Part shown: piece after piece, positions 1 through 64,000 of the stretch
Layout of the letters: each line of letters starts with the position of its first letter
Numbering within the stretch: the stretch's first letter is position 1
From: a virus
DNA: 64,000 nt
IMG/VR virus record: IMGVR_UViG_3300021963_000054
Coordinates: 32,001-96,000 of that record
Strand: one strand, 5' to 3'
Position numbers and translations under genes: made by a program
Notes under the pieces: generated by a model
Seen by the model: the letters and a program-made list of their open reading frames with translations, nothing else
What the model was told of the DNA's origin: nothing
Database searches by the model: none

Positions 1-96
1 CCAAAGATTAGCATCATTCAATCTAAATTAAATAAAATGCTTGTTCTGGATGCAGATGATCCTACCAGCGTTGTTGTTAAAACTACTACAATTTAA
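1..96 (+). CDS. 3' end of upstream gene, probably baseplate wedge gp6 (partial)
   Basis: Open frame PKISIIQSKLNKMLVLDADDPTSVVVKTTTI* ends at TAA 94-96 and overlaps the next ATG (TAATG). It lies directly before gp7-gp8. Confidence 0.55.
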   Translation, partial: PKISIIQSKLNKMLVLDADDPTSVVVKTTTI

Positions 97-10394: not shown

Positions 10395-10628
10395 ATGCTT
10401 GTGAAAGTTGAAGGTACCAATTTTATTAAAGATACCGGCACAAACGCCCTGTTGATGACGGGGCGGAATGCTTTGGTAGAAAATGAAGCAAGGAAAAAAC
10501 TTGCCGATAGGATGAATGGCAAAAATAATGAGATAAATAACTTGAAGAATCAAGTGGAAGAATTGTCTTCGGATATGAAGGAAATTAAGTCCCTACTAAA
10601 CGCATTGTTGAAACAGAGTAAAGAATAA
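10395..10628 (+). CDS. Small coiled-coil hypothetical protein (77 aa)
   Basis: Tightly packed ORF with a C-terminal heptad pattern (INNLKNQVEELSSDMKEIKSLL). Confidence 0.75.
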   Translation: MLVKVEGTNFIKDTGTNALLMTGRNALVENEARKKLADRMNGKNNEINNLKNQVEELSSDMKEIKSLLNALLKQSKE

Positions 10629-13600
10629 TGTCAATTAATAACATTACACGAACAAATACGATTGATGAATGGCGCATCCAGACAAATCAATCTGCGACCG
10701 AACTTAATAAAATAGAGACTGGAAATTATGATAAATTTTCTGGCTCTCTTAATATTGCATGTACCGCAGTTTTATCCATTACCGCTCAAGGAACTCCGCT
10801 TCAAGTTTCAAATAATGCACTAATTGGCACTCAACTTACCGTCGGTAAAGATATTATTTTAGGTTCAGAAATATCTCAAACCGGTAATTTGTCAGTTGGC
10901 AATACAGTTTATATTTACGGTGGTGCAACGGCACTTTATGTTGCAAACAATGTAATATCTAATGGCAGTCTTCTTGTTAGAAACACAATCACAACAAACA
11001 ATGTAACCGTAAATTCAAACGTAGTTGTTGTGGGTACAGCAAACGCAGGATATTTAGGTGTAGCAAATAGTGGTTATGTTGGCACAACTTTAACTGTTAT
11101 TGGAAATACAGCAGTTGGTAATTTGACAACCGCAAACTCAGTTGTTGCAGACAATGGTCGCTTTAGTAATAACGTAACTGTAGAACATATCATAGCGGCT
11201 AATTCTGTTGTATCTTATGGCGCTAGAATAACCAATAACACAATTACAGGCAATTTAAATTCAACATCTGTTGTAGCTGATAATGCAAGAATCACAGCAA
11301 ATGCTACAGCAACAGAAATAACTGTCACAACTCTAAATGCAACAAATGCTAGAGTGTCGGGAAATGCAAACGTTGCACACCTAACATCTTCTGGTTCTGT
11401 TGTTGCTGATAATGCAAGAATCACAGCAAATGCTACAGTTGCACACCTAACATCTTCTGGTTCTGTTGTTGCTGATAATGCAAGAATCACAGCAAATGCT
11501 ACGGCAACTGAAGTAACTGTGACAACTTTAAATGCAACTAATGCTAGAATTTCAGCAAACGCAAACGTTGCACATCTAACATCTTCCAGCTCTGTTGTTG
11601 CAGACAATCTAAGAATAACAAGTCCAACTGCTTCTGCTAACATCAGCGGTAACGTTATTGCCGGAAACGTAAATACACAAGGTATGGTGTATGCTGGTTC
11701 TTTAGTATCAGGTAAGACAGATGTTGGCGCATTAACTGTAACATCTTTAAGTACAGGTGGAGAGGCAACGGTTGGCGATTTAAATGTAACTGGCGATTTT
11801 GTATTGTCTGGTAGCATTGTTTATGATGCAGATATATTAACAATTAGCACTGCATCACCAATAACAACTACCGGAGAAGCATACTTTGGTGTATTCAGAG
11901 GAAATGATAAAGGCGGTGTATCTGGTGGATCTGGTGGCGCATCAGCAAATGCCAACGCATATATTCGCTGGAGTTCATCGGCTAACAACTGGCAAATTCG
12001 TGATGTATTCAATTCAGATTCCACAACAACATATTCCAAAATACTTACCGCAAATCTAATTACAACAAGTACTGCATCGGTAAGTAACAATGATTTTGCG
12101 TCTTCATGGTTAATGAAAAACTATGTTGATAATGCAAATACAAATCTAAAAAGTTACGTAGACACAAGTGCTATTCAAACAGCGGCTGCAAATGCTGGAT
12201 TACTTGGTATCAATTTAAGCGCAAACATTGGTGCCGCTAGAATTGCTGATACCGCAAATTCTGGTTTGGGCGATATCATTGTAATGGGTCGTGCTAATGG
12301 CGCATTTGGTGTTGCTAATCTCGCATCAAATACATTCAACGGAACATCAGGTTCTGCGGCACCAAGTAACGGCATAATTTCGTTTACAAGCACGAATGGT
12401 GTCACATTAGTCGGTGCGTCTAATACCATTACTGTTAATACGCCACAAGATGTAAGAACAACGGCAAGTCCAACATTTAGCGGATTGACACTAACCAATG
12501 CTCTTCCTACATCACAAGGTGGTACAGGAGCAACTTCACCTGGCGGTGCGCTAACGAATTTATTACCAGCTGGCGGAACATCAGGATATGTTTTAGCGAC
12601 TAGCGGATCAGGAACTTATTACTGGGCCGCTGGTGGTACTGGAGGTGGTGGTAGTGCAACTCCCGGTACAACAATTGTTTCAACGAGAACAACACCAACT
12701 GTTAATGCATCACAAAGAATATTCGCAACACCTATCTATCAAACTGGTACAGGTCAGTTAAGAGTTTTTATCAATGGTGTTAGACAGTTTGCATCCGAAT
12801 ATACTGAAGGCGCAAATAACTTAACAGGTGTGGCATCAGTATCATCAAATGGTTATTTTTCAACAACATCAGCAACTTCAACTCTTGTTGCTAACGCGGC
12901 TCTTGCGATTACTGGAACATTAACCGGAACAGGAACAATTACATCGTATGTTTCCGGAAAAACATATTATATAAGCAACATAAATGGCAATTTCTTCTCA
13001 CTATCCGAAACTGTAGGTGGTGCGGCTATTACAACAACAGCAGGCACAACAACTGGTCTTTCATTCACGACTGGACATAATGTAACATTAACAACTGGAA
13101 CAAGTGCTGGTGATGCAATTTTACTTGAAGTTGATGCATACACGGTGAATCCTTATTACGCAAATAACATAGCATATGGACCTGTAACTGGCGAAATTGC
13201 CGCATCAGCAAATACCATTCAGTTGGCTATTGACAGTTTGGAATCAAGAAAGATTACAACAACAGCGGCACAAGCAAACGTTGGTGCTGGTCTAATTACA
13301 GTTACAAACGCATATCAAGCCAACGTTGGTGCGGCTAGAATTTCTGATGTAGCAACACTTCAAGCAAATACTGGTGCATTAAGTATTGGTTTAACTAATG
13401 AAATTTCTGGTAGACAAGCAAACGTAGGTGCGGCTGTAATCTCAGTCACAAATGGTTATCAAGCAAATACAGGTGCAGTAAACATTGGTTTAAGTAACGA
13501 GATAACGAATAGACAAGCAAATACTGGTGCAGTAAACATTGGTTTAAGTAACGAGATAACGAATAGACAAGCAAACGTAGGTGCGGCTGCAATTACTGTC

Positions 13601-14230
13601 ACAAATGGTTATCAAGCAAATACTGGTGCAGCCTTAATTACTGCATTAAATGCAAGTAACATTTCTTCGGGTACATTACCATCGGGTAGAATTTCTGGTT
13701 CTTATACTGGTATAACTGGCGTTGGTACACTCACAGCAGGGACTTGGAATGCCACTAGCATTAGTACAACATACACAGATGCTAAAGTAACTTCTGTTGC
13801 TAGTAAGACTGGAGCGGTTTCATTGGCGCAAGCGGACATTTCGGGATTAACAACCGCCAGCAGTCCAACATTTGCTGGACTAACTATAAATGGCTCAATT
13901 ACTGCTACTGGTGATATCACAGCTGGTTACTCGGATGATAAACTAAAAACAAGATTGGGTAATATTGAGAATGCTCTTGATAAAGTCTCGGCTATTTCAG
14001 GATTCTTCTATGAGCCAAATAAAACAGCACAAGATTTAGGTTTTGAAGTTAAGAGAGAAGTTGGTGTATCTGCACAAGAAGTTCAAGCAATTATGCCAGA
14101 AGTTGTTGTTCCTGCTCCAATAGATAATCAATACTTAACTGTTTACTATGAAAAACTTATTCCTCTGTTGATTGAAGCTATTAAAGAATTGAGAGCAGAA
14201 GTTGAAGAAATAAAAGGACAAATTAAATGA
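10628..14230 (+). CDS. Tail fibre with C-terminal peptidase S74 intramolecular chaperone (1200 aa)
   Basis: T/A/N/S/G-rich with internal repeats. C-terminal SDDKLK..IENALDKV..ISG..Y..VGVSAQEV..YEKLIPLLIEAIKEL matches the S74 auto-cleaving chaperone. Confidence 0.85.
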   Translation: MSINNITRTNTIDEWRIQTNQSATELNKIETGNYDKFSGSLNIACTAVLSITAQGTPLQVSNNALIGTQLTVGKDIILGSEISQTGNLSVGNTVYIYGGATALYVANNVISNGSLLVRNTITTNNVTVNSNVVVVGTANAGYLGVANSGYVGTTLTVIGNTAVGNLTTANSVVADNGRFSNNVTVEHIIAANSVVSYGARITNNTITGNLNSTSVVADNARITANATATEITVTTLNATNARVSGNANVAHLTSSGSVVADNARITANATVAHLTSSGSVVADNARITANATATEVTVTTLNATNARISANANVAHLTSSSSVVADNLRITSPTASANISGNVIAGNVNTQGMVYAGSLVSGKTDVGALTVTSLSTGGEATVGDLNVTGDFVLSGSIVYDADILTISTASPITTTGEAYFGVFRGNDKGGVSGGSGGASANANAYIRWSSSANNWQIRDVFNSDSTTTYSKILTANLITTSTASVSNNDFASSWLMKNYVDNANTNLKSYVDTSAIQTAAANAGLLGINLSANIGAARIADTANSGLGDIIVMGRANGAFGVANLASNTFNGTSGSAAPSNGIISFTSTNGVTLVGASNTITVNTPQDVRTTASPTFSGLTLTNALPTSQGGTGATSPGGALTNLLPAGGTSGYVLATSGSGTYYWAAGGTGGGGSATPGTTIVSTRTTPTVNASQRIFATPIYQTGTGQLRVFINGVRQFASEYTEGANNLTGVASVSSNGYFSTTSATSTLVANAALAITGTLTGTGTITSYVSGKTYYISNINGNFFSLSETVGGAAITTTAGTTTGLSFTTGHNVTLTTGTSAGDAILLEVDAYTVNPYYANNIAYGPVTGEIAASANTIQLAIDSLESRKITTTAAQANVGAGLITVTNAYQANVGAARISDVATLQANTGALSIGLTNEISGRQANVGAAVISVTNGYQANTGAVNIGLSNEITNRQANTGAVNIGLSNEITNRQANVGAAAITVTNGYQANTGAALITALNASNISSGTLPSGRISGSYTGITGVGTLTAGTWNATSISTTYTDAKVTSVASKTGAVSLAQADISGLTTASSPTFAGLTINGSITATGDITAGYSDDKLKTRLGNIENALDKVSAISGFFYEPNKTAQDLGFEVKREVGVSAQEVQAIMPEVVVPAPIDNQYLTVYYEKLIPLLIEAIKELRAEVEEIKGQIK
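11260..11610 (+). repeat. Tandem coding repeats (ADNARITANAT / VAHLTSSGSVV)
   Basis: A 66-nt unit at 11372 is repeated almost exactly at 11438, with diverged copies on either side. Confidence 0.9.
13270..13635 (+). repeat. QAN(V/T)GA coding repeats, including a 54-nt tandem duplication (13460-13513 / 13514-13567)
   Basis: Eight QANxGA units. QANTGAVNIGLSNEITNR occurs twice with a 1-nt difference. Confidence 0.9.
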
Positions 14231-15408
14231 CAACAAAAGTCACAGGTTCAGTTTTAGCGGATACCGCAGTTAGTGCGGGAACTTATGGCGGTACACAAAC
14301 CCTTAAAGCATTTACTGTTGATGCACAAGGCAGAGTTACATATGCCGCAAACATAACTTCCGGTGTTATTACTGCTGGAACAAGAGGACAAGGCGCAGAT
14401 ATTATTGTTCCAACAATTCAGTATAATGCATTGGGTCAAATTGTTGCGGCTACAAATACTACAATTCGCACAGCAACAACTTCTGTTACTGGTGTTGTTC
14501 AATTAGCTGATTCTGTTTCTAATACAAGTACTACAGCGGCCGCAACAGCAAGTGCAGTAAAAGCCGCTTTTGATGCGGCGGCTTCAAATGCGTCAACTGC
14601 GCTATCTTCCGCACAAGCAAATACGGGTGCTGTAAATATTGCACTAAGTAATGAAAGTTCAAGTAGACAAGCAAACGTAGGTGCAGTTGCCATTTCAGCC
14701 AAAAATGCTGATAATCTATCATCTGGTACAGTTGCATCTGGTAGAATTTCTGGATCATACACTGGCATAACTGGAGTTGGAACTTTAACTGTAGGATCAA
14801 TACCATACGCAACAAGTGCTGGTAGCGCAAGTTCAGCAACAAATGCAACATATGCAACAAGTGCTGGTAGTGCAACAAATGCATCTGCGGCTACAAATGC
14901 AACATATGCAACAACAGCGGGCAGTGCAACTTATGCTTCAAGTTCTGGTGGAACAAGTAGCGTTGCTTGGACTAATGTAAGTTCAAGACCATTTCAATTA
15001 GTTAGTAGTGGTAGTTTTGCTATTACGGGCACAGATACATTTTATACATTAGCATCACGCCAATCATTCTTTCAAGACCAAGCTGGTATATTCATGTTAT
15101 CTGTTTCTTGGGATTATAATTTTTCATATTTCAGAGGCGCATATATCATAGGGGCAACATATGGTTTAAATCAATTGGGATCAGTTTGGTATTTTCCACA
15201 ACCCAACACCGGCTATCATTTAGGTTTTCCTGGCTCATATGGCGAATACGCAAGATTATATTACTATAATGCCGGCGTAGGTTCAACACAAGAATTTAGA
15301 ATATATTTACAACAAACTACAGCTTACTATTATGGATCAATTCCTGGCGGTAGCGGAAATTGGTATCTACATAGAATTACTGATGGTTATGGCGGATATA
15401 TTGGTTAA
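14227..15408 (+). CDS. Tail fibre / receptor-binding protein (393 aa)
   Basis: AGTYG..TVDAQGRVT, A.TSV.GVVQL.DS fibre motifs, YATSAGSA repeats and a Tyr-rich C-terminal head. Confidence 0.7.
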   Translation: MTTKVTGSVLADTAVSAGTYGGTQTLKAFTVDAQGRVTYAANITSGVITAGTRGQGADIIVPTIQYNALGQIVAATNTTIRTATTSVTGVVQLADSVSNTSTTAAATASAVKAAFDAAASNASTALSSAQANTGAVNIALSNESSSRQANVGAVAISAKNADNLSSGTVASGRISGSYTGITGVGTLTVGSIPYATSAGSASSATNATYATSAGSATNASAATNATYATTAGSATYASSSGGTSSVAWTNVSSRPFQLVSSGSFAITGTDTFYTLASRQSFFQDQAGIFMLSVSWDYNFSYFRGAYIIGATYGLNQLGSVWYFPQPNTGYHLGFPGSYGEYARLYYYNAGVGSTQEFRIYLQQTTAYYYGSIPGGSGNWYLHRITDGYGGYIG

Positions 15409-15417
15409 GGATAAAAA

Positions 15418-15864
15418 ATGGAAATAATTTACGAACTAGATTCCGGATGCATTGTTAACAATGAATCTGAACAATATTTGACAAACGCTGGAGCAAGAGG
15501 TGCACTAGGAACAATAACAATATTACAAAATATTCCAACGGAAGAACTTGTTTTATATACAGTAAACACTACTACAAAGAAGATAGTTAAAGTTGTTAAC
15601 TCACTACAAGAGAAAGAACATTTAACTTATTTGGATGGAGCAAGAGCCGTTCGTAGTATGATGTTATCACAAACAGATATTTTGATGGGGCAATCGGATA
15701 GACTATCTCTAACGGAAAAAGAAGCATTGGAACAATTCAGACAGGATCTTAGAGATTTCAATAAAGATTTGGAATTAAACGAGAATCATCATTCGGGCGC
15801 AAAAATACAATTAGTTTTGCCTGAAGTACCTGAAGTTCTTAAAAAATATAAGTTATTCTATTAA
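15418..15864 (+). CDS. Tail fibre assembly chaperone-like protein (148 aa)
   Basis: ARAVRSMMLSQTD...FRQDLRD...LPEVP pattern of tail assembly chaperones. Follows a fibre gene. Confidence 0.65.
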   Translation: MEIIYELDSGCIVNNESEQYLTNAGARGALGTITILQNIPTEELVLYTVNTTTKKIVKVVNSLQEKEHLTYLDGARAVRSMMLSQTDILMGQSDRLSLTEKEALEQFRQDLRDFNKDLELNENHHSGAKIQLVLPEVPEVLKKYKLFY

Positions 15865-15873
15865 AGATAAAAC

Positions 15874-16206
15874 ATGGCTGCATTTTCAGAAATCGTTATA
15901 GAGCAAGGCGCAACATTCAACACTACAATTAATGTTGAAGATACAGCTGGAGCCGCAATTAATCTTTATGGTTATACTGCAAACTCCATGATGCGTAAAT
16001 CATACTATTCCTCAAGCGCAACAACAATTACATCTACAGTAACTGGCACAGCAAATGGTGAAGTAACCCTTTCCGTAACTGCGGCTAATACTGCGGCATT
16101 AACTCCCGGAAGATATGTGTATGATGTTATCATTACATCTCCAACTTCCGTTGTCACACGGGTTGTTGAAGGAATTGTTACTGTTCTACCTTCAGTTACG
16201 AGGTAA
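15874..16206 (+). CDS. Conserved virion-associated protein (110 aa)
   Basis: IEQGATF..L.GYTA.S.MRKSY..GRYVYDV..RVVEGIVTV.P.VT pattern common in T4-like structural regions. Confidence 0.7.
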   Translation: MAAFSEIVIEQGATFNTTINVEDTAGAAINLYGYTANSMMRKSYYSSSATTITSTVTGTANGEVTLSVTAANTAALTPGRYVYDVIITSPTSVVTRVVEGIVTVLPSVTR

Positions 16207-16208
16207 TT

Positions 16209-16463
16209 ATGGTCACAGCTAGAATCAATACTCCAGGAGTGATTGGTAAAGTTGCTGTTCGCCCAAATCAAAGAACAACAATTGCAGATCCAAAGTTTAT
16301 TCCTAAACCAAATGTTGGTTTAGTTGAATTGTATGATACCACAGTTGATGCTCCGGAAGAGGGCGATGTTATCGCATATGTGGCTAGCACAGGAAAGTTT
16401 GAGAATCAGCCACTCGGTAACGTAAGTGTTCAAGTTCCAAGGATAAATGGCGGAGCTTTTTGA
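16209..16463 (+). CDS. Small virion-associated protein ending in NGGAF (84 aa)
   Basis: RBS GAGGT before the ATG. L.D...GD.I.Y...GKF fibre-type motif. Confidence 0.65.
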   Translation: MVTARINTPGVIGKVAVRPNQRTTIADPKFIPKPNVGLVELYDTTVDAPEEGDVIAYVASTGKFENQPLGNVSVQVPRINGGAF

Positions 16464-16474
16464 CTTACCAAATT

Positions 16475-16482
16475 CATAAATA
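16475..16482 (+). promoter_or_regulatory. T4-type late promoter variant (CATAAATA)
   Basis: Intergenic, one mismatch to TATAAATA. gp55 is encoded in the window. Confidence 0.55.
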
Positions 16483-16517
16483 GAAGAATAAGAAGATTCC
16501 ACAATTAAGGAACGATA

Positions 16518-18167
16518 ATGGCAAATACAGTAATCCAGTTAAAATATTCCAGCATAACCAACAAACCGCCTACACTTAATGTAGCGGAACCAGCATACTC
16601 TAGTGTATCCGAAACTCTTTGGATTGACAATGGAACTGGTGTCGTAGCGATTGGCGGTAAAGCATATACTGACAAAATTGATGCGGCTGCCTCAGCGGCG
16701 ACAGCTAACGTTCTTGTTAAGAGAGATACTACAGGTAACGCATCTTTCAATTACATCACTGCTAACATTGTTGGTAGCATTTATGGTAATGCAACAAGTG
16801 CAGACAAATGGTATACTCCTAGAGATATTGGTGTTTCCGGTGATGCAACAGGTATCGTTTCTGTTGACGGTACAGCAAACGCTAATATTCCATTAGTTCT
16901 TTCCAACTCTGGTGTGGCTGCTGGAAATTATGGTGGTGCAACAAATGCCGCAGTAATTTCTGTAGACACAAAAGGTCGTGTAACATACGCGGCTAACGTT
17001 CCGATTTCTTCTACACTAAACTTCTCGGGCGATATTGGTGCGGCTCCAGGAACATTATCTCTAATCTCCGATACCCTAACAATCAAGGGCAGTCTAAACG
17101 GCGGTATCAGTACCAATGCTGTTGATGCAAACAATACAGTACTTGTTAATGTTGATAATACTGTTCTTAGAAATTCTGGAAATCAATTTATCTCCGGCGA
17201 CTTGTCATTAACAGGAAGTTTGTTTGTTGCTGGTAATACCACAACAGTGGATACTACAACAATATCAACAGCAGACTCTTTAATTAGACTAGGCGCAAAT
17301 AACACAGTAAGCGATGTTCTAGATATTGGTTTCTATGGCAAAGCAAATACAGGCACAGAAGTAACTCATCACGGTCTTGTTCGTAGAGCAGGAACTGGTA
17401 ATGACTTCTTCTTGTTCAAAAATTTAAATACTGATCCAACAGCAAACGTTCTTGCTACAGGTTCAGTAACGGCTGCTAATACCGCAACATTAAGGGCTAA
17501 CCTAACTGGCGGTATGATTTCCGCTCTTGCTAATACTATTGGTGTTGTTGACGGTGGTACTGGCGCAGGCACATTTGCGACTGGTAGCATTCTAGTTGGT
17601 GATGGAACAAACTCATTAAAAGTACTAGCTAATACCGGTACAGCAGGAGCATATGGTTCTGCATCTAATACATTAATTGTTACCACAGATGCGTATGGTC
17701 GTGTGTCAGCTATTACAAATAGTGCAATTCAAATTGATGCTTCAAACATCGTATCTGGTAATTTAGCAATTAATAGAGGCGGCACAAACAACGATTCTTA
17801 CACAACTGGTGCCGCAGTATTCTATGATGGTACTGCAATTAAGACATTAGCAAATACTGGCACAGCAGGAACTTATGGTTCAGCATCTTATGTTCCTGTG
17901 GTTACAACTGATGCTTTAGGTCGTGTTTCGGGTGTAAGCAATACTGCAATCAATATTGATACAAGCGCAGTCGTTTCCGGCACACTAGGTATCGCAAGAG
18001 GCGGTTCAGGAGCATCTTCATTCTCAGTTAAAGGTGTTATCGTTTCTGATGCGGCATCAACAACTGGTGCATTGTCTGCATTGACTTCACCAACCGAAGG
18101 TCATCTATTACAAATTAATTCATCTGGAGCACCAACTTTTGCACACCTAAATGGTGGAACATTCTAA
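16518..18167 (+). CDS. Tail fibre-like protein (549 aa)
   Basis: MANTVIQLK N-terminus, G.YG..TD..GRV repeats, L.I.RGG motifs. Ends in NGGTF. Confidence 0.7.
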   Translation: MANTVIQLKYSSITNKPPTLNVAEPAYSSVSETLWIDNGTGVVAIGGKAYTDKIDAAASAATANVLVKRDTTGNASFNYITANIVGSIYGNATSADKWYTPRDIGVSGDATGIVSVDGTANANIPLVLSNSGVAAGNYGGATNAAVISVDTKGRVTYAANVPISSTLNFSGDIGAAPGTLSLISDTLTIKGSLNGGISTNAVDANNTVLVNVDNTVLRNSGNQFISGDLSLTGSLFVAGNTTTVDTTTISTADSLIRLGANNTVSDVLDIGFYGKANTGTEVTHHGLVRRAGTGNDFFLFKNLNTDPTANVLATGSVTAANTATLRANLTGGMISALANTIGVVDGGTGAGTFATGSILVGDGTNSLKVLANTGTAGAYGSASNTLIVTTDAYGRVSAITNSAIQIDASNIVSGNLAINRGGTNNDSYTTGAAVFYDGTAIKTLANTGTAGTYGSASYVPVVTTDALGRVSGVSNTAINIDTSAVVSGTLGIARGGSGASSFSVKGVIVSDAASTTGALSALTSPTEGHLLQINSSGAPTFAHLNGGTF

Positions 18168-18189
18168 ATTATAATGAAAGGATTTTATT

Positions 18190-18750
18190 ATGGATGTGAG
18201 ATTACAAAATGCTTATGTAGAGGTTTTGCTTGGCAATTTTATGGAAGTTGTCAAGCAGAATTTAATGTTTCAAGCACAAATTGAAGTAAATAAGAATAGT
18301 TTACAAGAAGCAGAAGATTCAGTAAGAAGATTAAAAGAAGTTTCTGAAGCGAATATAACATATCAATCTCAACTTGTTGAAAAAGATAAAATTATAAATG
18401 AGTTAACGAGCGAAAGAAATAACCTAAAAAGTTCTTCAGGAAATAATGATTCTTTGAAACAAGAAAAAGATAGATTGCAAAGTGCAGTCAATGACTACAT
18501 GAGACAATTAAAATCTGCACAACAAGAAGTATTGACGGTTAAGAGTGAATCTCAAAATGTTTTATTACAAAACAATAATCGGATTGAAGAACTCACTAAA
18601 TATGTTGCAAGATTGGAAACTGTAGTTCCGGCAAACAAACTTAAAAAAGTTAAACTTGGTGAAGTTATTCAACCTGATACTTCAGAGATTACAGTTGAAG
18701 AACCTGTTCTTCCAATTGATGATGTTGTGAAATCTGGCGGAACATTCTAA
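18190..18750 (+). CDS. Coiled-coil protein ending in SGGTF (186 aa)
   Basis: Long heptad-rich, E/K/Q/N-rich helix. RBS AAGGA. Confidence 0.7.
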   Translation: MDVRLQNAYVEVLLGNFMEVVKQNLMFQAQIEVNKNSLQEAEDSVRRLKEVSEANITYQSQLVEKDKIINELTSERNNLKSSSGNNDSLKQEKDRLQSAVNDYMRQLKSAQQEVLTVKSESQNVLLQNNNRIEELTKYVARLETVVPANKLKKVKLGEVIQPDTSEITVEEPVLPIDDVVKSGGTF

Positions 18751-18760
18751 GATTCGGTAA

Positions 18761-19870
18761 ATGGCAAATACAGTAATTCAATTAAAAAATTCGGGAGCAT
18801 CAGGTAATACACCAAGCACATTAGCGCCGGGTGAATTGGCTATTAACTATGCCGATGGTAAACTGTATTATGGTAATCAAGTAAATACTCCAATTCTATT
18901 TGATGTTATAACTGAGCCTACCGGACTAAATCAAGAAATTCAATTTAATGATTCTGGTGCATTTGGCGCATCAGCAAATCTAAAATTTGATAAAACAACA
19001 AAAACTTTAACTACCGATAAAATTGTTTCGGCGAATATTGAAGTTTCATCAAACTTAGTTGCTGATAATGTAATTGCACATACAGCATTGTATGTTGGCA
19101 TTGCAGATATTTCCCACACTCCTCTAGCGAACTCATTAGGGTACTTCACAGGAAATTCTTCTCCGTATGTTCAAGTAAACATTGAGAATATTGATCCAGA
19201 TGGTTCGGCTGATTGGGTTGCTACTGCTGACGTTGGTAGCGATTCAACATTCTACACAGACGTAGGTATTCAAAACTCAGGCAATTCAGATGGAACAATT
19301 AAACCACTAGATGGTTATTTGTTAGTACAAGGTAACACAGGTCAAATTGGTGGCAATCTTATAATTGGTACCATCTCTGGAACACCAGGGCAAGAAATTC
19401 GTGTTGTCGTTGATGGCAATGAAGATGCGAATGTAGTCTTAAAAATTAATTCTTCTGGTTTGCAGATGGTCAGAGGTGATATCACAAGTAATGTCACCAC
19501 AAGAATTAGTAACGTTTCAAACTCAGCATTTGCACAAGCAAACTTAGCATACAACGCAGCCAATTCCGCAGTAACGACAGGACAAGCCAACGTAGGCGCA
19601 GGATTAATTGTTGTTACTGGAAGAACAAATTTAGCATACGATAAAGCAAATGCCGCATATGATTATGCTAATACACTTATAACAGGTGGTGCTTCTGGTG
19701 ATTATTTTCCAACAAGTTCATATGGTTTCGTGTCTCAAAGTATAATTGCTCTTGTTTCGGATGACACATTCATACAGGGAGAATTAACTGGACCAGTTTA
19801 TGATTGTTCAGATAATCCAATAACTCCCGAAGGCTTTTACTTGGAAAAAGACCTTGGCTATTTAACGTAA
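18761..19870 (+). CDS. Fibre/virion structural protein (369 aa)
   Basis: MANTVIQLKNSG..P..L..GELAINY.DGKLYY N-terminus, IQFNDSG motif and AFAQANLAY heptads. Confidence 0.7.
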   Translation: MANTVIQLKNSGASGNTPSTLAPGELAINYADGKLYYGNQVNTPILFDVITEPTGLNQEIQFNDSGAFGASANLKFDKTTKTLTTDKIVSANIEVSSNLVADNVIAHTALYVGIADISHTPLANSLGYFTGNSSPYVQVNIENIDPDGSADWVATADVGSDSTFYTDVGIQNSGNSDGTIKPLDGYLLVQGNTGQIGGNLIIGTISGTPGQEIRVVVDGNEDANVVLKINSSGLQMVRGDITSNVTTRISNVSNSAFAQANLAYNAANSAVTTGQANVGAGLIVVTGRTNLAYDKANAAYDYANTLITGGASGDYFPTSSYGFVSQSIIALVSDDTFIQGELTGPVYDCSDNPITPEGFYLEKDLGYLT

Positions 19871-19878
19871 CATAAATA
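19871..19878 (+). promoter_or_regulatory. T4-type late promoter variant (CATAAATA)
   Basis: Immediately after a stop codon, 23 nt before the next start. Confidence 0.55.
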
Positions 19879-19901
19879 GATTGATAATTTAAGGATATTA
19901 A

Positions 19902-21710
19902 ATGCCAACGCAATTACAGTTAAGAAGAGGAAATACAGCGCAGACTGCAACATTTACTGGAGCAGTGGCTGAGATTACCGTTGACACAGATAAGAAAACA
20001 GTTGTTGTTCACGACGGCACAACAGCTGGTGGTTTTGCTCTTGCTTTAGAATCAGCACAGTTAGACCAATTTGCATTCACAAAAGCAAACTTAGCATTTG
20101 ATAGAGCAAACTCAGCATTTGCTCAAGCAAATGCAGCCTATGATACAGCTAACACAAAATTCAATTCTGCTGGCGGTACAATTTCTGGTAATGTAATCGT
20201 AACTGGTAACGTAACTCCAACAACAGATAATGTTTACAGTTTAGGTTCAGCAGGAAATCGTTGGAAAGATTTGTTTGTTGGACCAGGTTCAGTCAACATT
20301 GATGGTATTGTTATCGGAAACACTGGCGGGAATATTGTAATTAGTGGCGCATCTGATTTTGTTTTTCAACCCACAGGTGGCGCACCTTCAGTTTCTACTT
20401 CCGGTAGTGCTAACATCGCACTCAACGCATTCAATCAAGCTAACTTAGCATACAATCAAGCAAACGTTTCTTATGGTTCTTTTGCACAAGCTAATCTAGC
20501 ATACAGTCAAGCAAACTCTGGAACTGGTATTGCAGTTTCCGCTTTTGCACAAGCCAACTTAGCTTATACCGCGGCTAATAATGCTGTAGACACTTGGGTT
20601 AGAAATCAAGCTAACACAGCATATGACCAAGCAAATAATGCATTCGCTCAAGCTAATCTAGCGTTTACGGCTGCAAATAATGCTGTAGACACTTGGGTTA
20701 GAAATCAAGCTAACACCGCTTATAATAGAGCAAACTCAGCATTCGCACAGGCTAACCTAGCTTACGATACAGCAAATGCCGCATTGCCAAAACTTGGTGG
20801 TACAATTACTGGTGACTTGACTGTTTCTGGTAACTTAGTTATTTCTGGTAATACAACAACACTTAATGTTTCTTCATTGGCTGTTACTGATACTGTTATC
20901 CGATTAGGTACAGATAATCAAACCGACCTACTAGATATCGGTTTTGTTGGTCACTACGCTAATACGCCAAATAATCACACAGGTTTGATTCGTAAATTTA
21001 GCGATGGCAAATATTACTTGTTTGATAATTTGCAAACAGATAATGAGCCAACTAATATTGTTGATATTGCAAACACAAGAGTTGCAACACTAAGCGCAAA
21101 TCTAATCACGAACGTAATCTCATTGCGTGGACTTGATCCATTAGAATATTCAAATACAATTTATACTAATGCACAAGCAAATACAGGCAATGCAGTAATT
21201 ACATTAACATCTGCTTATCAAGCAAACGTCGGTGCTGGACTTATTACTGTAACATCAGATTATCAAGCAAACGTAGGTGCAGGTCTAATTACCAAGGTTG
21301 ATAAAGCTGGTGATGTAATGACTGGCGGTTTGTCTGCTAACGGCGCAATAATTGGCTCAAGTTTGACAGCAAACACTACAGCAACAATTAATACGAATGC
21401 TGTTTATGAATCTACTGCTGTAACAACTGCGGCCAATACTCAATTTACATTAGATTCATTTTCAACAACTGCATATCGTTCAGCTAAATATCTCGTTCAG
21501 ATTTCTAGCGGTTCATCATATGAATTACTAGAAATGACTTTGATCCATGATGGAACGACTGTGTATTTGTCTCAGTATGGTAACATTAAAACTGGTGCAA
21601 CATTAGGTGTATTTGACGCTACAATTTCAACTGGTACTTTAAGTTTGTTAGCTACACCAAACAATGCAGTAACTACGTTCAAGACAGCTATAACTCTGAT
21701 ACCGACATAA
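19902..21710 (+). CDS. Fibre protein with major-tropism-determinant N-terminal (Mtd_N)-like domain (602 aa)
   Basis: MPTQLQLRRG..FTGA.AEITVDTDK.T.VVHDG.TAGG N-terminus, A(F/Y)xxAN heptads, a 33-aa duplicated unit, and a C-terminal YRSAKY..HDG domain. Confidence 0.75.
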   Translation: MPTQLQLRRGNTAQTATFTGAVAEITVDTDKKTVVVHDGTTAGGFALALESAQLDQFAFTKANLAFDRANSAFAQANAAYDTANTKFNSAGGTISGNVIVTGNVTPTTDNVYSLGSAGNRWKDLFVGPGSVNIDGIVIGNTGGNIVISGASDFVFQPTGGAPSVSTSGSANIALNAFNQANLAYNQANVSYGSFAQANLAYSQANSGTGIAVSAFAQANLAYTAANNAVDTWVRNQANTAYDQANNAFAQANLAFTAANNAVDTWVRNQANTAYNRANSAFAQANLAYDTANAALPKLGGTITGDLTVSGNLVISGNTTTLNVSSLAVTDTVIRLGTDNQTDLLDIGFVGHYANTPNNHTGLIRKFSDGKYYLFDNLQTDNEPTNIVDIANTRVATLSANLITNVISLRGLDPLEYSNTIYTNAQANTGNAVITLTSAYQANVGAGLITVTSDYQANVGAGLITKVDKAGDVMTGGLSANGAIIGSSLTANTTATINTNAVYESTAVTTAANTQFTLDSFSTTAYRSAKYLVQISSGSSYELLEMTLIHDGTTVYLSQYGNIKTGATLGVFDATISTGTLSLLATPNNAVTTFKTAITLIPT

Positions 21711-21740
21711 TAAAATTCATAAACAAAGGGATAGTGAACT

Positions 21741-23696: not shown

Positions 23697-23704
23697 GGAA
23701 AAAA

Positions 23705-23977
23705 ATGGAATATACTGTCAACAAGATTCAAGACCAATCATTTGGATATAATATTTCAATGGAACATTTGGGGAAAAAAATTAACTTTAATGTTTTTTGT
23801 GCAAACAGTGAAACTGAAATTCCCGAATTGGTAGCCCATCACCTTGCTTTTTTAGAAGCACCCGTTCCTGTATATCAGACTGAACCCCAAGTCTCTAGTT
23901 TACAAACTTTACTAGAACAACAACAAGCACTCATCACCCAACTGCAAGCCGATGTAGCGGCGCTTAAAGGAGCATAA
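23705..23977 (+). CDS. Small fibre-associated protein with S74-type terminal coil (90 aa)
   Basis: RBS AAGGA. Ends in EQQQALITQLQADVAALKGA. Confidence 0.65.
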   Translation: MEYTVNKIQDQSFGYNISMEHLGKKINFNVFCANSETEIPELVAHHLAFLEAPVPVYQTEPQVSSLQTLLEQQQALITQLQADVAALKGA

Positions 23978-23983
23978 ACAATG
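23918..23983 (+). repeat. 66-nt dispersed repeat, copy 1 (copy 2 at 27992-28057)
   Basis: 63/66 nt identical: caacaacaa..ctcatcacccaa.tgcaagccgatgtagcggcgcttaaaggagcataaacaatg. Confidence 0.9.
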
Positions 23984-24022
23984 TCAACAATCACATGGAA
24001 CATCAGCGACAAGACTATATAA
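23981..24022 (+). pseudogene. 13-aa remnant MSTITWNISDKTI of a 30249-like gene
   Basis: Has RBS AAGGAG. The first residues resemble MRTIVWNVS (30249). The frame then runs into the leader shared with 30596. Confidence 0.6.
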
Positions 24023-24025
24023 AAT

Positions 24026-56136: not shown

Positions 56137-56589
56137 ATGATGCTAGTATTGCCTGATAATATGATTGGTAAGCCTGTTGGTTTTACTTGTTCCACTTTTG
56201 ATTTGCTACATGCTGGTCACATTCTGATGTTAGCCGAAGCAAAATCAATCTGTGATTACCTAATTGTTGCGTTGCAGATGGATCCATCAATTGATAGACC
56301 AGAATCTAAAAACAAACCAGTTCAGTCTATTGTTGAACGATATGTCCAACTTTCCGCTGTTAAATTTGTAGATGAAATTATTGTGTACCAGACAGAGAAA
56401 GATTTGGAAGATATGTTGATGTTCTTGCCAATTACAATACGAATTATTGGTGAAGAATACAAAGACAAAGATTTTACTGGTAAACAAATTTGTGAAGATA
56501 GAGCAATTAAAATTTTCTACAACCAACGCAGACATAGTTTTTCAACAACCGAATTACGTAAGAGAGTGGCTAATAAAAGTACACTATGA
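56137..56589 (+). CDS. Cytidylyltransferase, glycerol-3-phosphate (TagD)-like (150 aa)
   Basis: FDLLHAGH (HXGH), K.KP.QS..ER and R.HSFSTT. Confidence 0.88.
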   Translation: MMLVLPDNMIGKPVGFTCSTFDLLHAGHILMLAEAKSICDYLIVALQMDPSIDRPESKNKPVQSIVERYVQLSAVKFVDEIIVYQTEKDLEDMLMFLPITIRIIGEEYKDKDFTGKQICEDRAIKIFYNQRRHSFSTTELRKRVANKSTL

Positions 56590-59365: not shown

Positions 59366-59949
59366 ATGATAATGATATTTTAGTTATTGATACTGGAGCA
59401 AAAGCTCCAACCAAAGTTGTAGAAGAACAGATTCTTCCACTGTCTATTTTAACAGAAGGTAATCCAATTCTAAAAACACCAGTTGAAGAATTTGATATGT
59501 CGCAAGTCATGCAACCAGAAATTCAAAAATTTATTAAGCAGTTGAAGTTGACAATGAAAACCTACAATGGTGTTGGACTGTCAGCGAATCAATGTGGTTT
59601 TAAGTTTAGAATGTTTGTTATTGGTACAGACCAATTTCAGATGACTTGTATCAATCCAAGAATTATTGATGTTGATGGTGAACCAAAACTAATGCGTGAA
59701 GGTTGCTTGTCATATCCAGCGTTGTTTGTTGGCGTACCTAGATATGAAGGTATTCTTGTACATTACTATGATGAATACTCACAGCCAAAAGAATTGTGGT
59801 TGCGTGGTATTACCGCACAATGTTTCCAACATGAATTGGAACATCTTGATGGTAAAGTATTTCTTGAAAGAGTTAAGCCTCTTGCTATGCAGATGGCAAG
59901 AAAACGTCAAACTAAATTGATTAAGAAGATTGTAAGGAAATCAAAATGA
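59362..59949 (+). CDS. def: Peptide deformylase
   Basis: GVGLSANQ, EGCLS and QHELEHLDG motifs. Confidence 0.95.
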   Translation: MNDNDILVIDTGAKAPTKVVEEQILPLSILTEGNPILKTPVEEFDMSQVMQPEIQKFIKQLKLTMKTYNGVGLSANQCGFKFRMFVIGTDQFQMTCINPRIIDVDGEPKLMREGCLSYPALFVGVPRYEGILVHYYDEYSQPKELWLRGITAQCFQHELEHLDGKVFLERVKPLAMQMARKRQTKLIKKIVRKSK

Positions 59950-60317
59950 GCGATATAAAAGTTCAAGAAACAACTGAGTATGAGAGTTGTCTTGATTTTG
60001 AGAGTGATGATATCAATGATGTTTCTAAATTTATGGATGGTGAAGAAACACAAGAAGAAAAACTTCCTATAGTTGAAGTTGATGATTCGTTGCTTACCAG
60101 AGACCAATTCTTCAAGAAGTATTGGAAAGGTATGCCGACTTTTGACCAGAATGATAATCCACCTTGGAAACAACTTTATGTTAACTTCCGAAATGAAGAA
60201 GATTATCTAGCATTTGCTAAGTTGATTGACCAAGCACTATCAGATAAGAGTAAAAGTATTTGGTATCCAAAACTTGACGTAGAAGAAAACTCATTGAATC
60301 GTTGGATTGTAGAATGA
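59946..60317 (+). CDS. Small acidic protein coupled to the glycosyltransferase (123 aa)
   Basis: W.GMP.F.Q....V.F...ED...F...I.Q.....KSIWYP pattern. ATGA overlaps at both ends. Confidence 0.75.
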   Translation: MSDIKVQETTEYESCLDFESDDINDVSKFMDGEETQEEKLPIVEVDDSLLTRDQFFKKYWKGMPTFDQNDNPPWKQLYVNFRNEEDYLAFAKLIDQALSDKSKSIWYPKLDVEENSLNRWIVE

Positions 60318-61219
60318 TTAACCCTAAGTATCCAGTTTATATTATCTCTAAAGGTCGGCATGAATCCATGTTGACTTCTCGGTCACTCGCTCGTATGAAA
60401 GTTCCTCATTACATTGCAATTGAACCACAAGACCTAGACAACTATGAGAAAGCATTGGATGAATTTAAGATTCGCCCATATGTTACATTGCTAGTTGCGC
60501 CATTCAGTAATCATGGCGATGGTCCTGGTCGTGCTAGAAATTGGTGTTGGGATCATGCGATTGAAATTGGTGCAGAAAAGCATTGGGTACTAGATGATAA
60601 CATTTCTGATTTCTACCGTTTGAATCAGAACAAACGATACCGTGTAGAATCTGGTGCTATCTTCCGAGCCGCAGAAGATTTTGTTGACCGCTTTGAGAAT
60701 GTGCCAATCTCTGGCTTTCAGTATCGTTTCTTCATTGCACCAAATTCAAAGTATCCTCCTTTCGTAACTAACACACGAATCTATTCTTGTTTGCTTATCT
60801 CTAATGATTGCAAACATCGTTGGCGTGGTAGGTACAATGAAGATACTGATATCTGTCTCCGCGTATTGAAAGATGGTGATTGCACTATTCAATTCAATGC
60901 ATTCTTGCAAGGTAAAGCGGCTACACAAACAGTTAAGGGTGGTAACACCGAAGAATTCTATCATAAAGAATTTGCTGACCAAGACGAAAACTTTAAGAAG
61001 ACTGGTTACAACAGTAGTGGCACAATCAATAAGTCTCAGATGCTTGCAGATATGCATCCAGATGTTGCAAGAGTTGTTTGGCGTTATGGTCGTTGGCATC
61101 ATTATGTTGACTATAATCCATTCAAGGTAAACAAACTGCGAATGAAAGCTGATGCTGTAATTCCAGAAGGCAACAACGAATATGGAATGAAGTTGATTCG
61201 TAATTGGAAAGCAGATTGA
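60314..61219 (+). CDS. TET/JBP-associated (GREB1-like) glycosyltransferase, putative DNA base modifier (start revised to 60314)
   Basis: YPVYIISKGR, EPQD...Y, G.G.ARN..W, HWVLDDNI, RIYSC.L, WRG.YNEDTD..L..L and K..T....GGN. Confidence 0.78.
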   Translation: MINPKYPVYIISKGRHESMLTSRSLARMKVPHYIAIEPQDLDNYEKALDEFKIRPYVTLLVAPFSNHGDGPGRARNWCWDHAIEIGAEKHWVLDDNISDFYRLNQNKRYRVESGAIFRAAEDFVDRFENVPISGFQYRFFIAPNSKYPPFVTNTRIYSCLLISNDCKHRWRGRYNEDTDICLRVLKDGDCTIQFNAFLQGKAATQTVKGGNTEEFYHKEFADQDENFKKTGYNSSGTINKSQMLADMHPDVARVVWRYGRWHHYVDYNPFKVNKLRMKADAVIPEGNNEYGMKLIRNWKAD

Positions 61220-62073
61220 TGAGTATTGTTGATGAAATAGGCAAAGAGAGTCTAAAGCGGTATCTTGAAAACTGTGCTAAGGTTGCAGACATAGATATTG
61301 AGGCGGCATTCAAAGTCACATTGAATTGTATGAAAGCGCATGATGGCGCAATCATACCAGATGATGATATGCGTCAAATGAAAGACCTTGAGAACAGATG
61401 GTATGCATCATTGGAAACAGGAACGCCAGACTATTCTGTTTACTCTGATGCTTATTATTTCTGCGAAGTGTGGATGTGTTGGACAAAATACTCTAGAAGG
61501 TATCTCAAAGAAATCAATGCGCCAAAGTCTATGTTTGGTAAAAGTATAGTTGAATACATTGGTAATGTTGACAATGTGGTTGACTTGGGATGCGGTTTCG
61601 GTTATACTACAGTTGGTATGAAAGAATTGTTTCCCAACTCCAATGTCTATGGTACAAATCTAAAAGATAGTTACCAGTACAAGATGGCAACAGAGTTGGG
61701 TGACAAACACAATTTCAAAATCATTGAGAATCTTACTCAAGTTGAAAAGCCAGGAACAAGTTTGTTTTTTGCTTCCGAGTACTTTGAACACTTTGACAGA
61801 CCGATTGAACATTTGATTGATGTGATTGAACAAGGCTCACCAACTTATATGTTGATTGCTAACACATTCAACGGAAGAGCCATTGGTCACTTCAATCAAT
61901 ACAAAGATTGTACCGAAGTCTATGATGGAAAACAAATGGGAAGATTGTTCGGAAAAACACTCAGAAAATATGGATACGAAAGTGTTAACACAGATTGTTG
62001 GAATAATAGACCAGCTTTTTGGCAGAGAAAAGATAGTTGTTTTTTAACAACAGAGAACTTTAGTAATACTTGA
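61219..62073 (+). CDS. Class I SAM-dependent methyltransferase (start revised to 61219)
   Basis: VVDLGCGFG motif I and ASEYFEH. TGATG coupling to the glycosyltransferase. Confidence 0.8.
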   Translation: MSIVDEIGKESLKRYLENCAKVADIDIEAAFKVTLNCMKAHDGAIIPDDDMRQMKDLENRWYASLETGTPDYSVYSDAYYFCEVWMCWTKYSRRYLKEINAPKSMFGKSIVEYIGNVDNVVDLGCGFGYTTVGMKELFPNSNVYGTNLKDSYQYKMATELGDKHNFKIIENLTQVEKPGTSLFFASEYFEHFDRPIEHLIDVIEQGSPTYMLIANTFNGRAIGHFNQYKDCTEVYDGKQMGRLFGKTLRKYGYESVNTDCWNNRPAFWQRKDSCFLTTENFSNT

Positions 62074-62122: not shown

Positions 62123-64000
62123 ATGCAGTTTACCCAAGAATCCAAATCTCAATTAGCCAAGTTGATGGCTACCGAAAACCTCACCGTTGAACACCGAAAA
62201 GTATCTACGGCTTCCTTTAATCTTAAGGACCGTGTTCTTACTCTCCCAATCTGGAATGATATGTCTGGCGAAATGTATGATTTACTTACCGGGCATGAAG
62301 TTGGTCACGCATTAGAAACGCCAGAAGAAGGTTGGCACAATGCCGTCATGGGCACTGGCAAATTTGATAAGAATTTCAAAAACTTCCTTAATGTGGTTGA
62401 AGATGCCCGCATTGAGAAAAAAGTCAAACGCCGTTTTCCCGGCTTGCGCCAATCGTTTGTCAAAGCATACGGTCAACTATTAGAAAAAGATTTTTTCGGT
62501 ATCAAGTATCGTAATGTGAATGCTTTGCCTTTCATTGACCGCTTGAACCTTTACACTAAAGGTGGTGTCTCCCTCGGCATTCAATTCAACAATGAAGAAA
62601 CCAAAATGTTAGCCGATGTTGAATCGTGCGAAACGTGGGAAGATGTTGTCCGTATTACCGAAGCAATTTTTGACTATTCAAAAACCGAACAAAAAGAATT
62701 GCAACAAGAAAAAATTCGCCAACTGAATTCATTCTATGATGATGAAGATGGCGATTATGAAATGGACATGGACAGCAATGATGATTCTTCCAATGATGAA
62801 GAAGAAAATCAGAAAGATGGTCAGTCACAAGATGGTGAAACTGAAAAAGAATCATCCGATGGTGAAGATACAGAAAAATCTGAATCTGGTAAATCAGATT
62901 CCGACTCGGAAGAAACATCAGAAGAACAGCCAGAAAAAAGCAATACCATTGAACGTGATAAAGAATCACATGATAGTACCAGTGAAAATTCTGACTTTGA
63001 ACCAGTTTGTGAAACCGATGAAAAGTTTCGTGAAAACGAAAGTCAATTGTTGGACAGGTCTTGCAAAGAATATCTGTATGTGAATTTGCCAACACCTATC
63101 TTTTCAGAAATTCTTACACCATACAAACGTGTGCATGAATTGATGGAAAACTTTTGGAATGACCGCCTTGACAATCGTAAAGATATCCAAAATAATTTGC
63201 TCCGCGATTTCAAAAACAAGAATGACCGGTATGTTTCTTTGCTTGCAAAAGAATTTGAAATGCGTAAAGCCGCATCAAAATTCTCTCGCCAAAAAGTTTC
63301 TGAGACTGGTGATATTGACGTTAGCCGTATCTATAAATACCAAGTTGATGACAATATTTTCCGCAAAGCTACCTTTGTACCAAAAGGCAAATCGCATGGT
63401 TTAGTTTTGTTGCTTGACCGTTCAGGTTCAATGCAAAGCAATATGTCTTCATCATGGGAACAAATTTTGGTTCTCGCAATGTTTTGCCGCAAAGTGAATA
63501 TTCCTTTTGTTGTTTATGGTTTCGGTAATGATGATAGTACTTTTCAACATGACCATGGTCGTTTTAATCATAGGTCATTTTCAGAAAATGTAAACGAATT
63601 GTCTGGTTCGAATGTTTTCTTGCGTGAGTATTTGAATTCTAAAATGAGTGCAAGTGAATTTACTCGGTGTACCAAAAATATTCTGGCTTTGGCTAGCAGT
63701 TATGATTATCGTAATTATCGTAGATTTTCAACACCTAGTTCTGAAACTTTATCAAATACTCCAATGACGGAAGCAATGATTGCATTGAAGCCTTTGACAG
63801 AACAATTCCGTAAAGTGAACAATCTTGATATTGTTAATACTGTTATCATGCACGATGGTGATGCCGACAGAATTGGCGCTGTGGTTGGTGAACGTACTGA
63901 CTACAATGGTAAATCATATCTTGGAAGAACGGGTATCGGTAACGATACATACAACCTTGTGTTGCGTGACAAGAAAAATAAATTTGAAGAATTGATGCGT
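62123..64000 (+). CDS. HEXXH metallopeptidase-like / vWA (CobT-like) protein, 3'-truncated; absent from the ORF track
   Basis: MQFTQESKSQLAKLMATENL..GHEVGHAL..NVVEDARIEK, an acidic linker, then LLLDRSGSM (MIDAS) in the same frame. RBS AAGGA. Confidence 0.85.
   Translation, partial: MQFTQESKSQLAKLMATENLTVEHRKVSTASFNLKDRVLTLPIWNDMSGEMYDLLTGHEVGHALETPEEGWHNAVMGTGKFDKNFKNFLNVVEDARIEKKVKRRFPGLRQSFVKAYGQLLEKDFFGIKYRNVNALPFIDRLNLYTKGGVSLGIQFNNEETKMLADVESCETWEDVVRITEAIFDYSKTEQKELQQEKIRQLNSFYDDEDGDYEMDMDSNDDSSNDEEENQKDGQSQDGETEKESSDGEDTEKSESGKSDSDSEETSEEQPEKSNTIERDKESHDSTSENSDFEPVCETDEKFRENESQLLDRSCKEYLYVNLPTPIFSEILTPYKRVHELMENFWNDRLDNRKDIQNNLLRDFKNKNDRYVSLLAKEFEMRKAASKFSRQKVSETGDIDVSRIYKYQVDDNIFRKATFVPKGKSHGLVLLLDRSGSMQSNMSSSWEQILVLAMFCRKVNIPFVVYGFGNDDSTFQHDHGRFNHRSFSENVNELSGSNVFLREYLNSKMSASEFTRCTKNILALASSYDYRNYRRFSTPSSETLSNTPMTEAMIALKPLTEQFRKVNNLDIVNTVIMHDGDADRIGAVVGERTDYNGKSYLGRTGIGNDTYNLVLRDKKNKFEELMR

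Follow-up and report, generated by a model that had tools for sequence, protein, structure and literature searches.

Flank-conditional avoidance of restriction-type words in an uncultured T4-like phage and a candidate shield at GG/CC steps

Why should a phage genome lose nearly every copy of a short restriction-type word and keep just those copies that have one particular base beside them? The question is raised by the word GCWGC in a 64,000-nucleotide stretch of viral DNA (the window), which covers bases 32001 to 96000 of the linear 104,951-bp IMG/VR viral contig IMGVR_UViG_3300021963_000054 (label G000). The contig is ~61% complete by CheckV and carries the T4-type genes gp23, scaffold, UvsW, gp55, gp46/47, gp45, gp44/62, regA, gp32, and gp59. 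Its capsid protein is ~63% identical to the capsids of cyanomyophages and likewise to the capsid of the SAR11 myophage HTVC008M, and its source is an uncultured T4-like phage of a freshwater lineage.

An initial annotation, made by reading the window, had counted about 45 GCWGC sites, all but one of them with a G on the 5' side or a C on the 3' side. Exact counting returned 45 sites, of which 44 are flanked in this way (42 of them on one side only), so that bare copies (HGCWGCD), rather than being many, number one in the window. Markov nulls of order 1 and 2 predict 59 to 62 bare and 29 to 30 flanked sites. In a codon-shuffle null, in which synonymous codons were permuted while every protein and the codon usage were kept, 200 shuffles gave 85.6 ± 5.4 bare sites (minimum, 73) and 24.2 ± 4.6 flanked sites (maximum, 39). 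The deficit of bare sites is equally strong over the whole contig (1 observed versus 119 ± 7 in the codon null), and flanked sites stand at 62 versus 40 ± 6. Examples of the sites that obey the rule, and the sole exception, are as follows.

Window 3446, 4465, 7261, 13586, 20133, 24089, 33320, 39787, 43828, 49609, and 55635: rule-obeying GCWGC sites (examples)
Window 31048-31054, plus strand: the sole bare GCWGC, AGCAGCT, encoding Ser-Ser (AGC AGC), within the fibre gene at 30613-32142

The 300 bp around AGCAGCT gave no blastn match in the closest relatives (G001 and G002), which fits a fibre stretch that may be a recently acquired variable segment.

Restriction-type words are removed here through synonymous codon choice, and Ala-Ala is therefore written as GCG-GCN, GCC-GCN, or GCA-GCC. 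Dicodons that would create bare sites are depleted (GCA-GCA, 1 observed versus 37 expected; GCA-GCT, 3 versus 27; GCT-GCA, 6 versus 27), whereas others are enriched (GCA-GCC, 33 versus 9; GCC-GCA, 31 versus 9; GCG-GCT, 38 versus 6). Single alanines are mostly encoded by GCA (1138) and GCT (819), with 288 GCC and 258 GCG codons. Both features had been described in the initial annotation and are borne out by these counts, as is its remark that GCGGC and GCCGC are common: GCSGC occurs 158 times versus ~72 in the codon null. The same enrichment means that avoidance is directed at GCWGC rather than at GCNGC, which the annotation had also named as a possible target.

GCWGC is not alone in this behavior. 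Scanning all palindromes of the contig with all four flank bases revealed one shared rule, obeyed by at least eight cores: GCWGC, GATC, CGCG, CGWCG, CAGCTG, CACGTG, GTGCAC, and, in part, CASTG. Cores that start with G are kept only with an extra G on the 5' side or an extra C on the 3' side, and cores that start with C only with an extra C on the 5' side or an extra G on the 3' side; kept forms in the window include GGCWGC/GCWGCC, GGATC/GATCC, CCGCG/CGCGG, and CCGWCG/CGWCGG. Solely the base that doubles the terminal one exempts a site, i.e., G for G-start and C for C-start cores. Over the whole contig and against the codon null, bare GATC is found 0 times versus 168 ± 10 (doubled forms, 124 versus 130), bare CGCG 0 versus 62 ± 8 (29 versus 35), bare CGWCG 0 versus 37 ± 6 (15 versus 20), and bare CAGCTG 0 versus 19 (13 versus 13); bare CTGCAG is likewise absent (0 versus 20). 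Cores that start with A or T, at the edges of which no GG/CC step can be formed, are erased whatever their flank (TCGA, 21 versus 231; AAGCTT, 0 versus 30; TCATGA, 0; TGCGCA, 0).

We take the avoided words to be Type II restriction sites: GCWGC of TseI/ApeKI, GATC of MboI/Sau3AI, CGCG of FnuDII/BstUI, CGWCG of Hpy99I, TCGA of TaqI, AAGCTT of HindIII, TCATGA of BspHI, TGCGCA of FspI, CAGCTG of PvuII, and GTGCAC of ApaLI. Positions outside the CC are unconstrained. A longer protecting motif (CCD, CCG, or CCA) was considered and rejected, as any base may follow CC; CCC is scarce next to the sites, yet it is scarce throughout these genomes.

The rule recurs in relatives of the phage, where it applies to other cores. 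With the window's gene for a TET-associated glycosyltransferase (TAGT) as a handle, 502 related viral contigs were found, and 82 loci entered the group comparison. All five larger relatives (G001 to G005) obey the rule, each with its own set of purged cores; in G001, a complete genome, it acts on 6-mers only. In G004, observed over expected numbers for bare and flanked forms are 0/143 and 42/72 for GATC, 0/90 and 35/45 for CASTG, 0/110 and 32/55 for GTAC, and 0/44 and 18/22 for GCWGC, and the A-start core AGCT is lost in both forms (bare, 0/78; flanked, 0/91). In G005, GTAC is purged when bare (0/60) and kept when flanked (30/25). Across 56 related loci, the doubled forms of purged cores that start with G or C number 285 versus 464 expected, and those that start with A or T number 126 versus 958.

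Three cultured phages, HTVC008M, the vibriophage KVP40, and Aeh1, obey the rule as well; in KVP40, each of the 18 GTCGAC (SalI) sites reads GGTCGAC or GTCGACC. In HTVC008M, observed over expected numbers for bare and flanked forms are 0/208 and 83/86 for GATC, 0/141 and 28/58 for GAWTC, 0/91 and 15/37 for GASTC, and 0/35 and 14/14 for GTATAC. The nonpalindromic GAGTC is kept there only as GAGTCC and never as GGAGTC alone. This phage also offers a same-host control, since its SAR11 strain also yielded the podophages HTVC011P and HTVC019P (NC_020482-84). Both podophages have purged GATC and GANTC fully, flanked forms included (GGATC/GATCC, 0/21 and 0/22; GGANTC, 0/24 and 0/25), and have purged CCGG and GGCC to zero, whereas HTVC008M retains CCGG (51/55) and part of GGCC (22/96). 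The selecting nucleases thus read plain cores, and it is the myophage that escapes, by a trait tied to CC/GG.

These data bear on one way to account for the counts without any phage function, namely, that degeneracy lies in the recognition sites of the host nucleases themselves (e.g., HGCWGCD, HGATCD, and DCGCGH). An HGATCD-type enzyme is excluded in the SAR11 system by the loss of flanked GATC from the podophages, and the loss of GGANTC from the same phages likewise points to an agent that reads the plain core. Many unrelated enzymes would also have to share an identical odd flank requirement, and in G005 GATC is purged in any flank. We consider this explanation very improbable.

The reading that we prefer is that the nucleases imposing the selection read plain cores and that at least 12 restriction-type words have been lost from the phage through synonymous codon choice. 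Copies survive only where the outermost G:C pair is doubled outward, so that a 5'-GG-3'/5'-CC-3' step lies across the site boundary. The phage DNA would carry or acquire a shield at GG/CC steps that blocks cleavage, one shielded half-site being sufficient, and this shield would be a trait of the phage lineage and not of the host enzymes. We put the probability of this explanation as a whole at roughly 0.55. The shield would most likely take the form of a covalent mark on the base or the backbone at the CC/GG step, and, by analogy, the explanation for HTVC008M would hold for G000 too.

Two comparisons among genomes concern the link to CC/GG. In exempting genomes, palindromes with an internal CC/GG are purged in 3 of 42 cases versus 80 of 227 for those without; in control cyanophages this bias is reversed (24 of 38 versus 39 of 146). 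Furthermore, genomes sort into three classes: those with no exemption, those that exempt G-start cores only, and those that exempt G- and C-start cores alike. Purging without exemption is seen in the T4-like phages P-TIM40, S-SZBM1, S-WAM1, and Aeromonas phage 65. The second class comprises HTVC008M (0.63 versus 0.15 for G-start versus C-start cores) and KVP40 (0.39 versus 0.03), and the third includes G000 (1.16 and 0.95), G002 (1.00 and 1.00), G004 (0.56 and 0.57), and Aeh1 (0.32 and 0.27).

A flank effect confined to GGCC was observed in some phages in which the rule does not otherwise hold. The surviving copies of GGCC are nearly all GGGCC/GGCCC in DSL-LC03 (OR003938; bare, 0/123 versus 43/62 flanked), in Paraglaciecola Antarctic GD virus 1 (MW805361; 3/143 versus 100/78), and in PTm1 (1/77 versus 13/33), and KVP40 is also listed among the phages with this pattern. 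This GGCC-only effect may have a separate, GGCC-specific cause.

The main rival of a shield is an intrinsic kinetic effect without any mark: sites abutted by GG/CC would be cut more slowly, and large T4-like phages, with their repair and host shut-off, would tolerate this residual cleavage, whereas small phages would not. Such an effect needs no writer gene, and none was shared in any gene profile. The rule also spans very different hosts (SAR11, Vibrio, Aeromonas, and a freshwater host), the exemption depends on the enzyme, and GGCC is confined to GGGCC/GGCCC in the otherwise rule-free DSL-LC03 and Paraglaciecola virus. However, on many unrelated cores the exemption is all or none, flanked forms occurring at full null frequency, and its sole requirement is the exact doubling base. 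Phage 65, P-TIM40, S-SZBM1, and S-WAM1, which are T4-like and share these repair genes, purge flanked copies fully, and CCGG is fully kept in HTVC008M but erased in the podophages of the same host. The kinetic rival is weakened by these observations, and we regard it as unlikely, if the least unlikely of the alternatives.

Several methyltransferases of phage or host, each recognizing a site one base longer than that of the nuclease (GGATC, GCWGCC, or CCGCG), could in principle produce the same pattern. Enzymes with such one-base-longer sites exist, e.g., the AlwI type (GGATC), and in a contig that is 61% complete the genes could be missing. Nevertheless, a separate enzyme with the same one-base extension would be required for each of at least eight cores, and relatives apply the same rule to GTAC and CASTG. 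Such genes are absent from the complete genomes of G001 and HTVC008M, whereas the nonexempting cyanophages do carry methyltransferase genes. An array of separate methyltransferases therefore seems a poor candidate.

The search for the writer of a putative mark gave points that weigh against the shield. No C5, N4/N6, or Dam-type methyltransferases were found in the complete genomes of G001 and HTVC008M; specifically, PF00145 (C5-methyltransferase) had no match in G000 to G004 or HTVC008M and one sub-threshold match in G005, and PF01555 and PF02086 had none in this contig or in the complete G001 and HTVC008M. Matches were also lacking for PF12851 (TET/JBP dioxygenase) in G000 to G005, for PF00303 (dCMP hydroxymethylase, thymidylate synthase family) in G000 to G005 and HTVC008M, for PF01702 (TGT/DpdA-type transglycosylase) in G000, the only genome searched for it, and for PF01507 (DndC/SspD) and PF00266 (cysteine desulfurase) in G000, G001, G002, and HTVC008M. 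At tblastn sensitivity, no nonstructural gene was common to exempting genomes and absent from nonexempting ones. Several points of the pattern itself count on the same side. C-start cores are unexempted in HTVC008M and KVP40, and a single-base mark cannot fall inside both G-start and C-start sites, so that a bulky, two-base, or linkage mark has to be assumed. GGCC is depleted 3- to 4-fold although it holds CC on both strands, and most of its surviving copies are avoidable. GCATGC and CTTAAG show little exemption, i.e., the exemption is enzyme dependent, and G005 purges GATC in any flank (bare, 0/109; flanked, 0/46). Finally, the same-host control stems from HTVC008M and not from the host of G000 itself, and the contig is just ~61% complete. 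A separate idea, that the GGCC survivors are forced by Trp-Pro, was discarded, being true for only 4 of 36.

The initial annotation had argued that a single CC/GG modification fits better than odd degenerate enzymes. A single GG/CC-linked protection agrees with the rule on at least eight cores in the contig, in all five relatives, and in HTVC008M, KVP40, and Aeh1; the covalent base modification that it envisaged drew no support from any known enzyme family. Its expectation that the pattern foretells the host's restriction-modification motifs is reasonable, and the predicted set comprises GATC, GCWGC, CGCG, CGWCG, TCGA, AAGCTT, TCATGA, TGCGCA, CAGCTG, CTGCAG, CACGTG, and GTGCAC.

None of the candidates that emerged from the gene profiles (gp5, a gp59-like protein, fibre repeat domains, an NT5C-like nucleotidase, and a small winged helix-turn-helix protein) is an evident enzyme for such a mark. 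The fibre repeat domain (G001 17831-26192; window ~10628-21710) is the only sequence that every exempting genome (DSL-LC03 among them) contains and that phage 65 and three cyanophages lack; it is probably a host-range signal and not a DNA function. The nucleotidase is located as follows.

L001 16980-17480 (contig coordinates): NT5C-like deoxypyrimidine 5'-nucleotidase, present in G000, G001, G002, HTVC008M, and KVP40

Neither Aeh1 nor the four cyanophages have this gene. NT5C-like nucleotidases accompany the rewiring of nucleotide pools in phages with replaced pyrimidines.

The window contains one cassette that could act on DNA, together with a neighboring gene.

Window 59946-61219, plus strand: two-gene module of a 123-amino-acid open reading frame (ORF) and TAGT (PF20691, E = 4e-47; phrog_842)
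Window 60302-61219, plus strand: TAGT, candidate DNA glycosyltransferase (PF20691)
Window 59946-60317, plus strand: 123-amino-acid ORF, directly upstream of TAGT in 81 of 82 loci
Window 61204-62073, plus strand: class I S-adenosylmethionine (SAM)-dependent methyltransferase-like ORF, with sub-threshold Pfam matches and a faint TrmB-like NCBIfam match

The 123-amino-acid ORF matches the N-terminal extension of the longer TAGT proteins (~400 amino acids), such as that of Aeh1 (NC_005260, 63453-64652), and TAGT is thus apparently split into two genes here and fused in others. This cassette, with the sugar nucleotide genes for GalE and an RfaE-like enzyme, could itself be the shield, by attaching a bulky sugar to a hydroxylated base at CC. 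The PF20691 match is strong, the module is conserved across the 82-locus group, and GalE and the RfaE-domain-II-like enzyme are encoded on the contig. Moreover, the TAGT-positive G000 to G004 and Aeh1 exempt both starts and the TAGT-negative HTVC008M and KVP40 only G-start cores, as a bulky adduct predicts. However, HTVC008M and KVP40 obey the rule but lack TAGT, whereas phages 65 and henriette encode it and yet show no exemption, purging even CCWGG; TAGT is neither necessary nor sufficient for the rule, and on these grounds we rejected it as a general shield. Of the TAGT-positive phages, all of which were predicted to exempt C-start cores, only the G000 group and Aeh1 did so. Furthermore, a source of hydroxymethylated or hydroxylated bases is lacking, with TET/JBP and ThyA family proteins absent from G000 and G001, and the observed pattern does not match GpC[C/T], the target of the partner methyltransferases described in the literature (PMC8256090). 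We regard the cassette as an improbable shield.

The SAM-dependent methyltransferase-like ORF was also rejected as the shield. It occurs in only 23 of the 82 loci, is missing from the rule-obeying loci L019, L029, and L033 to L038, is not CmoA-like, and is not a recognizable DNA methyltransferase.

Several known systems resemble parts of the pattern. As in classical restriction site avoidance, 4- to 6-bp Type II palindromes are lost through synonymous codons and differ between related phages by host. However, classical avoidance is flank blind, as in the podophages and cyanophages tested, whereas here the copies with a doubled G or C stay at their expected frequency. The chlorella virus enzymes M.CviPII (CCD) and M.CviPI (GC) are short-motif cytosine methyltransferases that block many overlapping sites, and no known specificity comes closer than CC(D) to the one proposed here. 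These are canonical C5-methyltransferases, in contrast to the absence of PF00145 from this contig, G001, and HTVC008M, and no nicking-enzyme partner was seen. DNA phosphorothioation places its marks at GpsGCC and GpsATC (Dnd) or at CpsCA (Ssp), and natural marking is partial and restricted to motifs such as CCA. A phosphorothioate-type linkage mark at GG/CC would sit at the boundary of G- and C-start sites alike, unlike a single-base mark. Nonetheless, the Dnd/Ssp genes of families PF01507 and PF00266 are absent here, and the base after CC is free and not restricted to CCA.

Two further systems modify cytosine in phages. Hypermodification by a C5-methyltransferase, TET, and a glycosyltransferase is postreplicative and takes place in the context GpC[C/T] (Burke et al. 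2021, PMC8256090; bioRxiv 10.1101/2023.12.21.572611). The window shares with it an enzyme of the TAGT family, but the methyltransferase and TET are absent. Because GCT sits in every GCWGC and GATCC lacks GC, neither a GpC[C/T] nor a GC system fits: the GpC[C/T] context would protect every GCWGC and no GATCC, the opposite of the observed pattern. In the T4-like cyanophage Synechococcus phage S-B43, CmoA-CmoX-CmoY produces 5-carboxymethylcytosine at GC, which resists overlapping restriction enzymes (PMC12783734). CmoX is a C5-methyltransferase homologue, which is absent here, its motif is GC in contrast to CC, and the SAM-dependent methyltransferase-like ORF of the window does not resemble CmoA. 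We found no paper on flank-conditional site avoidance or on DNA modification in HTVC008M-type phages.

It is tempting, although we give it somewhat less than even odds, to suggest that aquatic T4-like phages, including KVP40, Aeh1, and HTVC008M, carry an undescribed mark at CC/GG steps whose writer lies outside the known DNA-modifying families. If the CC/GG mark is true, it would have shaped codon choice genome-wide, and any site edged by a CC/GG step would be shielded. If the shield is real, sequence by itself would tell both what attacks an uncultured phage and how the phage responds: the nucleases that it encounters could be read from the purged cores, and the specificity of its countermeasure from the exempt contexts. 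Phage DNA modifications would then gain a new entry, and such phages might provide an enzyme that marks a specific dinucleotide in DNA. As KVP40 and Aeh1 are easily grown, the shield could be tested at once.

The SAR11 phages and their relatives gave some additional observations. All three of HTVC011P, HTVC019P, and HTVC008M purge GATC, GANTC, TCGA, and several 6-mers, and in HTVC010P, from the same SAR11 host, GATC is not purged. It is puzzling that SAR11 phages purge ~20 restriction words when SAR11 genomes are reportedly almost without restriction-modification systems, with one encoded in only 1 of >100 genomes (PMC7029224). In S-SZBM1 (NC_070839), TTSAA is found 0 times versus ~705 expected, CCGG is lost (0/231), and many 6-mers are absent too.

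The slot between gp46 and a CobT-like gene differs between the phages. In the window it holds def, a small ORF, TAGT, and the methyltransferase-like ORF; in HTVC008M (L176; NC_020484, 84548-87258) it holds a 335-amino-acid ORF, a JmjC/cupin oxygenase, and a DruA-like protein (PF14236, E = 5.5e-18), and a second DruA-like gene (HTVC008M 99535-100659) follows the DNA polymerase. The DruA-like genes (gp106 and gp122) were considered as a shield and dismissed, since they occur only in HTVC008M and in none of the 13 other genomes tested.

The contig also encodes a sizeable sugar-handling repertoire, which may act on DNA, virion proteins, or the host envelope.

L001 5127-6095; window 56137-56589 and 35918-36673; L003 4184-4999: sugar-handling genes (GalE, RfaE-domain-II-like, and glycosyltransferases)

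GalE scores above its NCBIfam cutoff, an RfaE-domain-II-like nucleotidyltransferase is present too, and there are three glycosyltransferases: TAGT, phrog_1574, and a GT2 enzyme adjoining two 2-oxoglutarate-Fe(II) oxygenases. In addition, a 118-amino-acid protein (L003 4999-5355; contig 98999-99355) contains the N-terminal domain of dATP/dGTP diphosphohydrolase (PF18909, E = 3.5e-34), an enzyme of the MazZ type that is known from 2-aminoadenine phages.

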